Program-made: the position numbers and the translations under genes
The notes under the pieces: model-generated
Databases searched by the model: none
What the model saw: the letters and a program-made list of their open reading frames with translations, nothing else
Told to the model about the DNA's origin: nothing
Shown here: positions 58,277 to 64,000 of the stretch, in pieces
How positions within the stretch are numbered: the first letter of the stretch is position 1
Layout: every line of letters begins with the position of its first letter
Source of the DNA: Pseudomonadota bacterium
Lineage (GTDB): Bacteria > Pseudomonadota > Gammaproteobacteria > Xanthomonadales > Rhodanobacteraceae
Direction of reading: 5' to 3'
Assembly: GCA_018240465.1 (NCBI GenBank)
Contig: JAFEFS010000073.1
Location: 6,008 to 70,007 of the forward strand
DNA: 64,000 bases

Positions 58277-59194
58277 ATGCCACCCATGCCCGAAAACGAA
58301 GCCGCCGACCGTCTGATCGTCGCGATCACTTCGCGCGCGCTGTTCGACATGGCCGAAAGCCACGCGTTGTTCGAGCAGGCGGGCCTCGAGGCGTTTCATA
58401 GGTTCCAGCGCGAACGCGAGAACGACGCGCTGGTGCCCGGCATCGCTTTTCCGCTTGTGCAGAAACTGCTCAGGCTGAACCCGCCGAAACCCGAACCGCC
58501 GCGCGTCGAAGTCATCCTGCTTTCGCGCAACTCGACCGACACGGGTCTGCGCATCTTCAATTCGATCGAGCATTACGGCCTCGACATCGCGCGTGCCGCG
58601 TTCACCTCGGGCGCGGCGGTATGGCCTTATGTGCGTTCGTTCGGTGCGCAATTGTTCCTGTCGGCCAACCCGGAAAGCGTGAAAAGTTCGCTCGATGCCG
58701 GCATTGCTGCCGCAACGATCCTGCCGTCGAAGGCGCCGGCCGCATCCTCGGATCAGTTGCGCATCGCCTTCGACGGCGATGCGGTCATCTTCGGCGACGA
58801 GGGTGAGCGCGTATCGCAGGAGCACGGTATCGAGGCATTCCATCGGCACGAGGTAGAGCGTGTCGACCAGCCCCTGTCCGGCGGGCCTTTCCGCGGTTTC
58901 CTCGCCGCACTGCATCGTTTGCAGGAGGCGTTCCCCGAGGAGAACTCGCCGATCCGCACCGCGCTTGTCACCGCGCGTTCCGCGCCCGCGCACAAGCGCG
59001 TGATCCTGACCCTGCGCCACTGGGGCGTGCGTCTCGACGAGGCACTGTTCCTCGGCGGCCGCGACAAGGGGCCGTTCCTGGAAACCTTCGGCGCCGACAT
59101 TTTCTTTGACGACTCCGCGCACAACGTCGAGTCCGCGCGCCGCCATGTCGCCACGGGACACGTGCCGCACGGCGTGTCGAACGAGAAGCGCTGA
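58277..59194 (+). CDS. 5'-nucleotidase (cN-I-like family)
   Basis: VAITSRALFD, LRIAFDGDAVIF, LVTARSAPAH, DIFFDD; start 58277 or 58286. Confidence 0.9.
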   Translation: MPPMPENEAADRLIVAITSRALFDMAESHALFEQAGLEAFHRFQRERENDALVPGIAFPLVQKLLRLNPPKPEPPRVEVILLSRNSTDTGLRIFNSIEHYGLDIARAAFTSGAAVWPYVRSFGAQLFLSANPESVKSSLDAGIAAATILPSKAPAASSDQLRIAFDGDAVIFGDEGERVSQEHGIEAFHRHEVERVDQPLSGGPFRGFLAALHRLQEAFPEENSPIRTALVTARSAPAHKRVILTLRHWGVRLDEALFLGGRDKGPFLETFGADIFFDDSAHNVESARRHVATGHVPHGVSNEKR

Positions 59195-59327
59195 GCACGG
59201 TTGCTGCCTTGCCGCGCCGCTGGAGGGCGGGCGTGCGACGCGCGCCCTGCGGCATGACTTCGTGCAAAGGGCAGGCCGGCGGAAAGGCCCGGCCGATCCG
59301 GCGCGTCGCAGACGCTGCGACGAAATG

Positions 59328-59361
59328 TGGTATTCTTGATTTTCGTTCGGAAATCAAGAAT
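59328..59361 (+). promoter_or_regulatory. Extended -10 promoter overlapped by a perfect 11-bp inverted repeat (candidate operator)
   Basis: TGG-TATTCT (59328-59336); ATTCTTGATTT-N8-AAATCAAGAAT (59332-59361), ending 4 nt before the ATG. Confidence 0.75.
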
Positions 59362-59365
59362 TGCG

Positions 59366-59947
59366 ATGAAGCAGCTTCCATCCCATGGCGGAGCCCGGCC
59401 CGGCGCCGGGCGCAAGCCCGGTTCGAACCGCTACGGCGAGCCGACGACTCCGGTTCGCGTTCCGCAAAGCCGCCTCGCCGCCGTCCGCTTCTATCTCGAC
59501 GAATGCGCGGCCGGAAAGCGGATGCGCCTTTCCGCTGCCGCCAACGACGCGTTCGCTCCGCCATTCCTGAACCTTCCTCTGATCGGCCGCGTCGCCGCCG
59601 GCCAACCCATCGGTGCCGATGCGCAGGTCGAACGCGAGATCGCGATCGATCGCCACCTGTTCCGTCCGCGTCCGGATTTCCTCCTGCGCGTCGAGGGCAT
59701 GAGCATGCGCGACGCCGGCATCCTCGATCGCGACCTGATCGCGGTGCATCGCACGCCCGAGGCACGCAACGGCCAGATCGTCATCGCGCGCATCGACGGC
59801 GAGATCACCGTCAAGGAATTCCGGCGCACGCGCTCGCGCATCACGCTGCTGCCGGCCAATCCCGACTTTGCGCCGATCGAGGTCGATCCGCAGGCAGATG
59901 ACTTCGCGATCGAAGGCCTTTACGTCGGCGTGATCCGCCTGCCGTAG
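59366..59947 (+). CDS. lexA: LexA-like S24 peptidase/repressor with non-canonical (UmuDAb-like) N-terminal domain
   Basis: C-domain GRVAAGQP (Ala-Gly site), RVEGMSM (Ser), TVK (Lys); N-domain [27 protein letters not shown] instead of a winged helix. Confidence 0.85.
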
Positions 59948-59956
59948 ACATTGCGC

Positions 59957-60595
59957 ATGAGCGTCCTGGCCGCCATCCCCGATTCCGCGATCGATGCGGT
60001 GCTGCGTGATCCGCGCGTCTGGCGTGGCGCGGCGAACGAGCACGAGGTCGCGTGCGTGCCATCCGGACATGCCGCGCTCGATGCAATCCTGCCGCATCGC
60101 GGCTGGACCCAGGGCGCTATGACCGAGATCCTGTTCGACGCGGATGGCACCGGCGAGCTTGCGCTCGTCCTGCCGGCGCTGGCACGACTGACCGGGCAAA
60201 AGCGCCACGTCGTTCTCGTCGCGCCGCCCTACCTGCCGTATGCGCCAGCCTTGTTCGTCAGCGGCATCGACCTTGGCTACCTGCATTGCGTGGAGGCGAG
60301 CGCGGATGCCCAGGCGTCGTGGGCCGCCGAACAATGCCTGCGCTCGGGCGTCTGCGCGGCGGTGCTGTGCTGGCCGCGCCAGGCGACGGATCGCACGCTG
60401 CGCCGCCTGCAGGTCGCGGCCGAATTCGGCAACGCGCTCGGCTTTGCCTTCCGTCCCGCGCGTGCTGCGGCGAACCCTTCGCCTGCACCGACGCGCATCC
60501 GCCTGCAGGCGGGCGAGGGCACGCATCTGCGCATCCTCAAATGTCGTGGCGCCAATCCGCCCGCGCGTTCGATCCCGTTGCGGCAGGCCGGGTAG
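59957..60595 (+). CDS. imuA: Translesion synthesis protein ImuA
   Basis: SGHAALDAILPHRGW...TEIL, GELALVLPAL, WAAEQCLRSG, LRRLQVAA, LKCRG. Confidence 0.93.
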   Translation: MSVLAAIPDSAIDAVLRDPRVWRGAANEHEVACVPSGHAALDAILPHRGWTQGAMTEILFDADGTGELALVLPALARLTGQKRHVVLVAPPYLPYAPALFVSGIDLGYLHCVEASADAQASWAAEQCLRSGVCAAVLCWPRQATDRTLRRLQVAAEFGNALGFAFRPARAAANPSPAPTRIRLQAGEGTHLRILKCRGANPPARSIPLRQAG

Positions 60596-60604
60596 GGGAT
60601 ACCG

Positions 60605-62047
60605 ATGCTTTGGGCGGCCTTGCTGTTGCCACGTCTCGGACTCGATGCGCTCGCGCGCAGCGTGCCGGATGCGGATGCGCGCATGCAGCAGCTCGCGTTG
60701 GTCTCGCGCGACCAGGCATGTCCGCTGATCGTCGATGCGATGCCGCGCGTGCGTGAAGCCGGCGTGCGCCGCGGGCAGACTCTGGCCGCGGCGCAGGCGC
60801 TGTTTCCAGCACTGAAAACCGCAGTACGCGATCCCGCGCAGGAATGCCGGCTGCGCGAACTGCTCGCCGGCTGGGCCTACGGTTACAGCTCGCAGGTGAG
60901 CTTGCGCGAGGACGATGCGATCCTGATCGAGGTCGGCGGCAGTTTTTCGCTGTTCGGCCCGTGGCCGCGGCTGGAGCGGCGCTGGCGCGAGGAGCTGAAC
61001 GCTCTCGGCATCACGCATCGGCTCGCCGTTGCGCCGACCGCGCTTGGCGCGCTCGCGCTCGCACGCGCGCAGGATGGTGCGCTCGTCGGCAACGCGGCAA
61101 CGCTGCGCCAGGCACTGGATGCATTGCCGATCGGGCATGCACGCCTCGACCCGCTCGTGGTCGAGGCGCTGCGCGGCATGGGCCTCTCGCGCCTGCGCGA
61201 AGTCTACGCATTGCCGCGCGCCGGCTTGATCCGCCGTTTCGGCGCCGCGCTTGCCGAGCATCTCGACCGCCTGCGCGGCGCGGCGCCGGATCCGTTGCCG
61301 CTGTATCGCCCGCCCGACCGTTTCCACGCACGCATGGAATTCGATCACGAGATCGAGTCGAGCGAAACGTTGCGTTTTCCGCTGCATCGTCTGGTCGGCG
61401 ATCTTTGCGCCTTCCTGACCAGCCGTGACGGCGGCGTGCAACAACTCGCGATCGTGCTCGAACACGACCCGCTGCAGTTCAGGCAGCGCGCGCCGACGCG
61501 GCTGGCGATCGGCCTGCAGTCGCCGCAGCGCGACGCGCGCACGATCTTCGAACTTTGCCTGCTGCGCCTGCAGGCAAGCCCGGTTCCCGCGCCGGTGCGC
61601 GCGCTCGGCGTGCAGGCCGAGAACCTGCCGCCGTTCGTACCGCTGGCGCGCGACCTGTTCGACGAAGCGCGCGGCGCGCAATTGGACTGGCCGCAACTGG
61701 CCGACCGGCTGCACAACCGGCTCGGCGCCGATGCGGTGTACGCGCTCGCGGTGGCCGACGATCCGCGTCCCGAACATGCCTGGCGCAAACGCTCAATCGC
61801 GCCAGCCGCAGCCCCCGTGCGCCGGCCCGGACCACGCCCGGGCTGGCTGCTGCGCCGACCGCTGCCGTTGCGCGGTGAGCCGAAGCGCATCCTCGCCGGC
61901 CCCGAGCGCATCGAAGCGGGTTGGTGGGACGGAGGTGACCTGCGCCGCGACTACTACGTGATCGAAACGCAGCAAGGCCAGCGCGCCTGGGCATTTCGCG
62001 GCATCGGCGGCGAAGCGCCGTGGCTGCTGCACGGATGGTTCGCGTGA
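60605..62047 (+). CDS. imuB: Y-family polymerase-like ImuB
   Basis: Between imuA and dnaE2; IEVGGSFSLFG, AVAPT, C-terminal GPERIEAGWWDG...RDYY. Confidence 0.93.
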   Translation: MLWAALLLPRLGLDALARSVPDADARMQQLALVSRDQACPLIVDAMPRVREAGVRRGQTLAAAQALFPALKTAVRDPAQECRLRELLAGWAYGYSSQVSLREDDAILIEVGGSFSLFGPWPRLERRWREELNALGITHRLAVAPTALGALALARAQDGALVGNAATLRQALDALPIGHARLDPLVVEALRGMGLSRLREVYALPRAGLIRRFGAALAEHLDRLRGAAPDPLPLYRPPDRFHARMEFDHEIESSETLRFPLHRLVGDLCAFLTSRDGGVQQLAIVLEHDPLQFRQRAPTRLAIGLQSPQRDARTIFELCLLRLQASPVPAPVRALGVQAENLPPFVPLARDLFDEARGAQLDWPQLADRLHNRLGADAVYALAVADDPRPEHAWRKRSIAPAAAPVRRPGPRPGWLLRRPLPLRGEPKRILAGPERIEAGWWDGGDLRRDYYVIETQQGQRAWAFRGIGGEAPWLLHGWFA

Positions 62048-62059
62048 GATTCCGCCGGC

Positions 62060-64000
62060 ATGAATACCGCGCCCGAATACGCCGAGCTGCATTGCCTGTC
62101 GAATTTCTCGTTCCAACGCGGCGCCTCGACCGCGCTGGAACTGTTCGAGCGCGCGGCTAAGCTCGGCTACCGCGCGCTCGCGATCAGCGACGAATGCAGT
62201 CTCGCCGGCATCGTGCGCGCGCTGGAAGCGTCGCGCGAAACCGGAGTCGCACTGATCGTCGGCAGCGAGATCCATCTCGACGATGGCCTCAAGCTCGTCC
62301 TGCTTGCGCCGAATTTCGCCGCCTACCAGTCGCTCTGCGCGCTGATCACGCGGGGGCGGCGCGAGGCGAAGAAGGGCGGATATGCGTTGCGCCGTGCGGA
62401 TGTCGCCGCGCATGCGCATGGCCTGCTCGCCCTGTGGATTCCCGGCGAAACCCCGGCACCGGATGATGCAGAGTGGATAAAACGGCATTTTCCACAACGT
62501 GCCTGGCTGGCGGTCGAACTGCATTGTGGCGCGGACGACGCCGCGCGCCTGCGCCAGCTGCTCGACTTTGCCGCCCGTCACGAATTGCCCGCCGTCGCCG
62601 CGGGCGACGTGCACATGCACGTGCGCCGCCGGCGTGCGTTGCAGGACATGCTGACCGCGATCCGCCACCACACGACGCTGCGCGCCGGCAGCGGCCACCT
62701 GTTCGCGAACGGCGAACGCCACCTGCGCCGGCGCGAGGCGCTGGCCGAACTTTATCCACGCGAGCTGCTCGCGGAAACACTGCGCATCGCGGCGCGCTGC
62801 ACGTTCGACCTGAAGCGCGATTTGAAGTATGCGTATCCGGGCGAGATCGTGCCGCGCGGGCATACGCCGACAACCTGGCTGCGGGATCTGGTCGAACAGG
62901 GCATCCGCTGGCGCTGGCCCGAAGGCGAAGGCGCCGCCGCGCGCGCGCAGATCGAGATGGAACTCGCGTTGATCGCCAAGCTCGGATACGAGTCGTACTT
63001 TCTCACTGTCAGCGACATCGTGAACTTTGCGCGCGGCAAAGGAATTCTCTGCCAGGGGCGTGGATCGGCGGCCAATTCCGCGGTGTGCTTTTGCCTCGGC
63101 ATCACCGCGGTCGATCCGCAGCGCTCGAAGCTGGTTTTCGGCCGTTTTTTGTCGGAGGAACGCGGCGAGCCGCCCGATATCGACGTCGACTTCGAGCATG
63201 AACGGCGCGAGGAGGTCATTCAATACATCTACGCCAAGTACGGCCGCGACCGCGCAGCGCTGGCGGCAACGGTGATCAGCTACCGGACCCGGAGCGCACT
63301 GCGCGACGTCGCCCGCGCGCTCGGATTCTCCGCCGATCAGGTCGCCCAACTGAGCCGCTCGATCTCGGTACACGACGACGGGGAGACCATGGCCGCACAC
63401 CTGGCCGAGGCTGGCTTCGACCCGGCCGCGCCGATGCTGCGGCGAGCGCTCGTGCTTGCGCGCGAACTGCACGGATTTCCGCGCCACCTTTCCCAGCATG
63501 TCGGCGGCTTCGTCATCTGCGATGCGCCTTTGCACACGCTCGTGCCGGTCGAGAACGCGGCAATGGCCGGGCGCACGATCATCCAGTGGGACAAGGACGA
63601 CCTCGACACGATGGGCCTGCTCAAGGTCGACTGTCTCGCGCTGGGCATGTTGACCTGCATCCGCAAATGCCTCGATCTGCTGCGTGCGCATCGTGGCCGC
63701 GATCTGACGATGGCCACGATTCCGAAGGAAGACGCCGCCACCTACGCGATGATCCAGCGCGCCGACACGGTCGGCGTGTTCCAGATCGAGTCGCGTGCGC
63801 AGATGGCGATGCTGCCGCGATTGAGGCCGAAGGAGTTCTACGACCTGGTCATCGAGGTCGCGATCGTGCGGCCCGGGCCGATTCAGGGCGACATGGTTCA
63901 TCCGTACCTGCGCCGGCGACAGGGCAAGGAAGCGGTGAGTTATCCGTCGCCCGAGATCCGCGGCGTGCTGGAACGCACGCTCGGCGTGCCGCTGTTCCAG
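62060..64000 (+). CDS. dnaE2: Error-prone DNA polymerase III alpha DnaE2/ImuC (3' partial)
   Basis: [60 protein letters not shown]; open to window end. Confidence 0.96.

Follow-up and report, generated by a model that had tools for sequence, protein, structure and literature searches.

A likely UmuDAb-type operator in front of a chimeric LexA-like repressor gene and the imuA-imuB-dnaE2 genes in the Rhodanobacteraceae

We find that the inverted repeat directly upstream of a lexA-like gene and its downstream imuA, imuB and dnaE2 genes is very probably, from comparative sequence data, the site bound by the self-cleaving repressor that this operon encodes. The recognized unit is probably a 22-bp site, TTGATT-N3-GTTC-N3-AATCAA, rather than the whole 11-nt arms of the repeat. 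This proposal draws on conservation among orthologues and in the wider protein family, on the uniqueness of the site in its genome, and on a layout in common with the operator of the Acinetobacter repressor UmuDAb. The features of the locus are given below by their positions in the window, which is the whole 64,000-nt stretch of DNA that was analyzed.

Up to 59194: 5'-nucleotidase gene, left neighbour of the intergenic region (Pfam)
59305-59321, no strand: second palindrome, GTCGCA-GACGC-TGCGAC; its wider form, CGTCGCAG-ACG-CTGCGACG, occupies 59304-59322
59328-59336, forward strand: extended -10, TGgTATTCT (conserved as TGnTAnnCT), with no -35 hexamer
59332-59361, no strand: full inverted repeat, ATTCTTGATTT-N8-AAATCAAGAAT (direct reading and repeat search)
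59336-59357, no strand: proposed 22-bp operator, TTGA-TTTTC-GTTC-GGAAA-TCAA
59366-59947, forward strand: chimeric repressor gene, 193 aa (open reading frame and domain searches)
59957-60595, forward strand: imuA (NCBIfam ImuA_translesion, 2.2e-63)
60605-62047, forward strand: imuB (IMS and IMS_C domains, Pfam)
62060 to the window end at 64000, forward strand: dnaE2 (open reading frame layout)

The chimera gene lies under one promoter with imuA, imuB and dnaE2, which make up the downstream part (59957-64000). The first-pass annotation had described a perfect 11-bp inverted repeat that overlaps an extended -10 and stops 4 nt short of the ATG, together with a second palindrome further upstream, and the sequence bears out all of these features, as does a repeat search for the second palindrome. 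The left arm ATTCTTGATTT occupies 59332-59342, the middle TCGTTCGG 59343-59350 and the right arm AAATCAAGAAT 59351-59361, followed by the 4 nt TGCG and the ATG at 59366; in the repeat search the main repeat appears as a 14-nt arm pair that is 93% complementary. The annotation had also found CTGT-N8-ACAG and GTAC-N4-GTGC boxes to be absent, and a pattern search of both strands of 59195-59365 likewise returned no CTGT-N8-ACAG, GTAC-N4-GT[GA]C, GAAC-N4-GTTC or TAGTA/TACTA box. The window has about six distinct perfect inverted repeats of 11 nt, mostly GC-rich and terminator-like (about 1.6 nested hits expected), so that they are no rarity there. Chance does not account for the repeat upstream of the chimera gene, but the argument draws on comparison and not on the palindrome.

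Conservation upstream of orthologues had been named as a test of the motif, and we found it retained in all ten hybrid sequences, which comprise the window and nine orthologues from Rudaea cellulosilytica DSM 22992, several Rudaea-like MAGs and three metagenome contigs. The hybrid orthologues are 60-87% identical at the protein level. In the alignment of the ten, the columns TTGAT, GT, C and AATC are invariant, and the letters between these vary, as does the region upstream of the promoter. Five of the sites are 22 bp long with a 4-bp core (GTTC or GTAC) and the other five are 23 bp long, their 5-bp core being GTAAC or GTTAC. The 23-bp N5-5-N5 geometry is that of loci L007-L009 and L116. At the outer ends of the repeat, only the closest orthologues and the P0052 and P0040 contigs retain the letters ATTC/GAAT. 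Given that the 8-nt "spacer" of the first reading carries the counterpart of the conserved core, we take the 22-bp site as the more likely recognized unit; the inverted repeat as such is confirmed, but its full 11-nt arms are less likely to be the unit. In the window, the arms are TTGA (59336-59339) and TCAA (59354-59357) around the central core GTTC (59345-59348), so that the site with its flanks reads cTTGA-ttttc-GTTC-ggaaa-TCAAg and its half-sites are TTGATTTTCGT and, on the opposite strand, TTGATTTCCGA. Both the 22- and the 23-bp class fit half-sites of the form TTGATTnnnGT that are separated by 0 or 1 bp. Such a 1-bp variation in spacing among orthologues is unusual for a rigid dimer site and fits flexibly tethered heads.

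To look beyond the orthologues we searched with the N-terminal domain alone, which retrieved 58 loci; a profile of the full-length alignment returned only canonical LexA loci, by way of its C-terminal pattern. The 58 loci come from Rhodanobacter, Tahibacter, Methylococcales, Chromatiaceae, Methylophilaceae, Alcaligenaceae, Thiomicrorhabdus, some Alphaproteobacteria and others, and nearly all encode UmuD-type proteins, several followed by umuC. A complete 12-letter match to TTGATT...AATCAA was found in 28/56 non-redundant upstream regions and in 0/506 control windows from the same loci; at a threshold of at least 11 of the 12 letters, the counts were 36/56 and 2/506. In all, over 35 genes that encode this N-terminal domain are preceded by the operator architecture, and the motif-bearing genes span the Alpha-, Beta- and Gammaproteobacteria. 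Most family sites have a GT(W)AC, GTTC or GTGC centre, and the start codon follows the site at distances between about 0 and over 40 nt. The UmuDAb-type N-terminal domain itself is carried by at least 156 representative protein clusters.

Several individual members of the family differ from this general picture. Four Alcaligenaceae loci (L161, L162, L165 and L166) keep the TTGATT/AATCAA arms and lack the GT..AC core, and in their proteins GEASARV replaces the GEPTxxVR segment; this co-variation hints that the GEPT segment may read the operator core. In the Methylophilaceae, the operator core GTTACAAT also serves as the -10, TACAAT, and the ATG follows after only 6 nt, so that a leaderless mRNA is implied. 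Long UmuD proteins with a UmuDAb-type head (L118-L170) are widespread outside the Moraxellaceae, many of them encoded in umuD-umuC operons and some by orphan genes, as in Acinetobacter.

The 193-aa protein encoded downstream of the repeat matches a single Pfam family, Peptidase_S24 (residues 71-186, 3e-33), and TIGR00498 lexA matches its residues 54-191. Residues 1-50 have no match in Pfam or NCBIfam, neither of which has a model for the UmuDAb-type domain. A search with residues 1-62 found the same domain on UmuD-like proteins of about 195 aa that are annotated "DNA polymerase V", and in a joint alignment the pattern HGGxRxGAGRKxGS..[YF]GEPT..[VL]R[VI]PxS....V...L hardly varies. This alignment contains C-terminal halves of two kinds, LexA-type (RVAAGQPI) and UmuD-type (VPAGFPSPADDY), and A78-G79, S113 and K150 are invariant. 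For comparison, Acinetobacter umuDAb loci were retrieved through the published operator, giving a UmuDAb sequence that begins MPKKKEFEHGGVRENAGRKAQFNEPTKVIRVPESQVNFIKNWLL. The match to the UmuDAb protein domain that the annotation had claimed stands: the N-terminal profile is homologous to UmuDAb of A. calcoaceticus (hhalign 97.5%, E 6e-12, 39 columns), and full-length BLASTP of the chimera against UmuDAb gives an E-value of 3e-24. Mutation of E24 and K40 of UmuDAb derepresses (PMC4807011), and these residues align with E25 and R41 of the chimera, E25 being invariant. With a UmuDAb-type head in residues 1-48 and a LexA-type S24 domain with a predicted Ala78-Gly79 cleavage site, Ser113 and Lys150 as its tail, the window protein is a natural chimera. 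The parts of a LexA-like switch are present, namely the Ala-Gly site, the Ser/Lys dyad and a RecA encoded in the genome (7e-140), and cleavage is predicted from them. The N-terminal domain consists of a Gly/Arg-rich arm, the GEPTxxVRVP segment and one helix. An AlphaFold model of the protein has a mean pLDDT of 79, with residues 1-16 below 50 and disordered and the N-terminal domain of low confidence, its lone helix spanning residues 34-48.

The likeness to the UmuDAb site that the annotation had pointed out extends to the published operator TTGA-N4-GTWAC-N4-TCAA, a 21-bp site with the A. baumannii sequence AACTTGAAAATGTAACTTTTTCAAGTT (PMC11332147), in that both have TTGA/TCAA arms and a central core. 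In the window and in A. baumannii/A. baylyi alike, the same inverted arms are extended to CTTGA/TCAAG, the inner flanks are AT-rich around a central core of GTnC or GTWAC type, and the promoter that the site overlaps is the one of the repressor gene itself; both repressors join a homologous N-terminal domain to an S24 self-cleavage domain, and neither regulon would extend beyond genes for error-prone polymerases. In EMSA of the UmuDAb operator the core outweighs either arm, and a two-site model with the core plus one arm in each site is favoured (PMC11332147), with which our half-site model of arm plus half-core agrees. The differences are mainly of geometry and partners. The site is 22 bp (N5-4-N5) here and 23 bp in sister species, compared with 21 bp (N4-core-N4) in Acinetobacter, and the window core is GTTC instead of the palindromic GTWAC/GTAC, although sister orthologues have GTAAC, GTTAC or GTAC. 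The window site overlaps the -10 and the predicted transcript start, whereas in Acinetobacter the overlap is with the -35 of a pair of divergent promoters. The chimera has a C-terminal domain of LexA type and not of UmuD type, and its proposed target is imuA-imuB-dnaE2 and not umuDC.

The annotation had proposed a genome scan for the motif, and our scan of the 3.67-Mb genome with a PSSM built from 19 family sites gave a single site, the one upstream of the chimera gene, at 36.1 bits; the next match, at 21.5 bits, is an AT-rich stretch. In the other hybrid genomes, an AT-rich spacer together with the core occurs only at the site upstream of lexA. The loose pattern TTGAT-N12/13-ATCAA has 1-6 matches per genome, and those that are not upstream of lexA have a GC-rich spacer and no core. 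A look-alike palindrome at C23:2204 (TTGATTTTTGCG-N12-CGCAAAAATCAA) was considered as a second operator and rejected; it follows a panD-like gene (a label resting on the N-terminal sequence only) between convergent genes and reads as a terminator-like hairpin. The domain LexA_DNA_bind (PF01726) has no match in the chimera, which thus lacks the wHTH of canonical LexA just as its intergenic region lacks the classical boxes, nor has it one anywhere else in the genome. We also found no second S24 protein above the cut-off and no second protein with a UmuDAb-type domain in the genome. In Acinetobacter, DdrR assists UmuDAb binding. A tblastn search of the whole genome with Acinetobacter DdrR returned no homologue (best E 1.3), so that no corepressor gene of this kind was found here, and there is one site per genome compared with about six in Acinetobacter. 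Because the operator occurs once in the genome, the circuit would be one of local autoregulation of the mutagenesis cassette; the "SOS operator" of the annotation holds up as the probable local operator of one operon but not as a genome-wide SOS box.

We propose that a dimer of the chimera would bind the 22-bp site with each subunit reading one half-site, that is, an arm and half of the core. The site extends from the final -10 base over the predicted transcript start, so that the bound repressor would block RNA polymerase at lexA(chimera)-imuA-imuB-dnaE2. DNA damage would then act through activated RecA, which would stimulate cleavage between Ala78 and Gly79 and derepress the operon. The autorepression site envisaged by the annotation is supported by the UmuDAb-type head of the protein and by the published operator layout, with the regulation itself predicted from sequence.

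Two other readings of the site concern the role of the protein. There is a slight chance that the operator is a non-functional relic of the grafting of the N-terminal domain and that the cassette is regulated only through the GTCGCA-N5-TGCGAC box. That upstream box ties the operon to a recA-type promoter class and could suffice for damage induction, but the operator letters are invariant down to 60% protein identity while the neighbouring intergenic DNA diverges, and the N-terminal domain itself is strongly conserved. It is still less probable that the operator is bound by a regulator other than the product of the downstream gene. The poor structure model of the N-terminal domain would leave room for such a regulator, but the motif co-occurs with genes for this domain over many taxa, the interaction between the homologous Acinetobacter domain and its operator has been shown by others (PMC4807011, PMC11332147), and the genome-wide search for a second carrier of either domain was empty.

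The remaining alternative depends on where transcription starts. A consensus scan of 59100-59450 found no -35/-10 pair and no terminator, and the promoter was accordingly placed at the extended -10, whose pattern TGnTAnnCT is conserved in 10/10 hybrid sequences and at the Rhodanobacter long-umuD locus L118. The final T of TGgTATTCT is the first T of the operator TTGA. From this -10, we infer that the transcript would start at about 59343, after the left arm, with a leader of about 22 nt. The annotation had remarked on a missing Shine-Dalgarno sequence, and there is indeed none between the operator and the ATG, that is, in the predicted leader 59343-59365, either here or in any hybrid orthologue. 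It had further suggested that the repeat could occlude translation initiation as RNA; in this reading, which we regard as very unlikely, a leader hairpin would mask the start region and reduce translation. Such a reading would suit the absence of a Shine-Dalgarno before the ATG, and, if the whole repeat were transcribed, it would have a 13-bp stem (59328-59400 folds at -22.2 kcal/mol, with a z of only -1.3). However, RNA from 59343 on does not contain the hairpin (-10.3 kcal/mol, z +1.5), the arms keep the same letters over distant taxa and do not covary, the would-be loop contains the conserved GT(W)AC core, and the distance from site to start codon varies widely in the family. Since the -10 sets the start beyond the left arm, occlusion of the translation start by RNA is not supported.

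The proposed operator belongs to a known type of gene cluster. A lexA2-imuA-imuB-dnaE2 mutagenesis cassette of Proteobacteria is said to have been described by Abella et al. and Erill et al. 2006 (Pseudomonas putida LexA2, Xanthomonadales). The window shares its gene order, with a LexA-family gene first that presumably regulates itself through a palindrome near its start codon, and sister genomes of the genus have exactly the lexA-imuA-imuB-dnaE2 arrangement with a wHTH LexA. The window differs from this cassette in having a UmuDAb-type domain in place of the wHTH, with the operator swapped along with it, and in having neither GTAC-N4-GTGC nor CTGT-N8-ACAG boxes. The non-canonical LexA of Bacteroidetes is likewise an S24 repressor with a non-wHTH head and a correspondingly different palindromic box, but that head is phage CI-like, the spacer of the box has no core and the regulon is a full SOS regulon, compared with the UmuDAb-like head and single operon found here (PMC8565304).

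The two halves of the chimera appear to have different relatives. Its C-terminal domain is 81-88% identical to that of the wHTH LexA of sister Rudaea genomes, and in a tree of C-terminal domains the chimera falls among the wHTH LexA proteins, apart from the C-terminal domains of long UmuD proteins, with support of 100/100. Hybrids and wHTH forms are interleaved in the same tree, in which the labels come from a crude pattern match and a few hybrids are mislabelled. The N-terminal domain, on the other hand, is about 70% identical to the heads of Rhodanobacteraceae long UmuD proteins, and the promoter-operator segments of Rhodanobacter L118 (ggTGcTATTCTTGAtttctgttcagcaaTCAAg) and of the window (tgTGgTATTCTTGAttttcgttcggaaaTCAAg) are nearly the same. 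From these relationships we infer that promoter, operator and N-terminal domain may have moved as one piece from a Rhodanobacteraceae "long umuD" gene onto the cassette LexA. A tblastn search of plasmid and phage collections with the N-terminal domain, as a trace of a mobile vehicle, found nothing. Where the cassette lexA of sister genomes encodes a wHTH, its operator, TACTACnTAAATTAGTAGTA, likewise occurs only once per genome. The cassette LexA being an autoregulator of one operon, it is explained how operator and DNA-binding domain could be exchanged jointly.

Among other genomes of the genus and order (L010-L033), we observed very different palindromes abutting the ATG of the cassette lexA, including TACGTACATTTGTACGT-ATG in many genomes, TACTACnTAAATTAGTAGT-ATG, CCACATnnATATGTGG, GACTAATATTAGTC and forms like CTGT-N8-ACAG. 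The operator of the cassette lexA turns over fast in this set, and the spacing of -35 and -10 implies leaderless mRNAs.

The second palindrome is a separate element and not part of the TTGA operator, and is very likely, judging from its distribution, a box of a DNA-damage regulon. It is conserved in 8/10 hybrid orthologues and, in the own genome, a related sequence lies upstream of recA (GTCGCAatccgTGAGAT). Versions of the form [G/A]TCGCA-N5-TGAGA[C/T], or palindromic variants, are found at about 16 recA promoters of the genus and at some from other families of the order. When the own genome is ranked with a PSSM of these sites, recA comes first, followed by the window site, nrdA, a kefB-like gene and parE, with a PA0069-family radical-SAM gene slightly lower:

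C72:156504: box upstream of recA
C35:19537: box upstream of nrdA
C93:64251: box upstream of the kefB-like gene
C65:7875: box upstream of parE
C85:25268: box upstream of the PA0069 radical-SAM gene

We also searched five other genomes for the exact TCGCA-N5-TGAGAY, which occurs directly upstream of recA in 5/5 and of the radical-SAM gene in 4/5. The exact box is found as well before nrdA and before two ycaQ-like genes, one dnaB and one kefB-like gene, the last four identified by N-terminal sequence only. The consensus across the genus (loci L195-L249 included) is [G/A/T]TCGCA-N5-TG[A/C]GA[C/T], which takes the -35 position 9-10 nt before a -10-like hexamer nAnnnT; this hexamer is found at that distance at 45/60 sites and at no more than 10 for any other offset, and in the window it is TATTCT, 9 nt downstream of the box. 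Two other assignments of the palindrome were rejected: it has no T-run and is thus no terminator, and as a second site for the chimera it is unlike the TTGA motif and also occurs at recA where the LexA has a wHTH head. At one recA upstream region (L222, genome G003), three tandem copies of GTCGCAatttc precede the box, a local amplification of its left half.

As to what reads this box, its layout resembles that of known activator sites. The PafBC -26 element is a WYL-type activator box. Other such boxes are CGWCA-N5-TGWCG for DdaA and CGAC-N7-GTCG for DriD (PMC12392091), and the second palindrome has in common with the WYL boxes of DdaA, DriD and PafBC a 5-N5-5 palindrome ending in CA/TG, its place at recA and repair promoters, the -35 position and a fixed 9-10 nt to the -10. 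The letters differ from the DdaA and DriD consensus, with TCGCA-N5-TGAGA/TGCGA here in place of CGWCA-N5-TGWCG. By this analogy, from which both the binder and the sign of regulation are taken, a WYL activator might read the second box, a suggestion to which we give somewhat less than even weight. The genome encodes four WYL proteins (C93:43958-44944, C85:36310-37008, one on C67 and C87:16695-17735), of which the C93 protein has the architecture HTH_11-WYL-WCX and is closest, among relatives of solved structure, to PafBC and DriD. The WYL gene on C87 has TGCGAC-N7-GTCGCA, similar to the CGAC-N7-GTCG of DriD, in its own upstream region.

In the searched literature (subscription journals lay outside its coverage), we found no description of a UmuDAb-type operator outside the Moraxellaceae or with a 22/23-bp geometry, of one serving a LexA-tailed chimera on imuA-imuB-dnaE2, or of the second box in Xanthomonadales. 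The UmuDAb operator has been presented as unique to Acinetobacter (PMC11332147), but we see its design, together with the unannotated head domain, in far more than 50 alpha-, beta- and gammaproteobacterial genomes, and it is not peculiar to Acinetobacter. The UmuDAb-type head, as seen in these sequences, looks like the mark of a regulator family with a wide distribution. Natural site variants of 22 and 23 bp clarify the half-site and give binding studies a ready set of variants, and Rudaea cellulosilytica DSM 22992, which has the same arrangement, is testable in culture. The Rudaea case is also a possible example of regulator rewiring, in which promoter, operator and DNA-binding domain were placed together onto the sensing domain of another repressor, and such rewiring would be tolerable because the regulon is a single operon.

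More tentatively, and at somewhat less than even odds, we suggest that Rudaea and its relatives may do without the classical SOS system, and that two non-LexA modules may meet at the cassette promoter: the genus-wide box, which would be read by a WYL activator like PafBC, DriD or DdaA, and a UmuDAb-type repressor and operator with control of the mutagenic polymerases alone. The two-tier logic of DdaA and UmuDAb in Acinetobacter would then have been assembled a second time, independently, in the Xanthomonadales, where promoter, operator and DNA-binding domain would have been swapped onto LexA as one module. If this reading is true, the box would replace the -35 at recA, nrdA, parE, the PA0069 radical-SAM gene, the ycaQ-like gene and the cassette.
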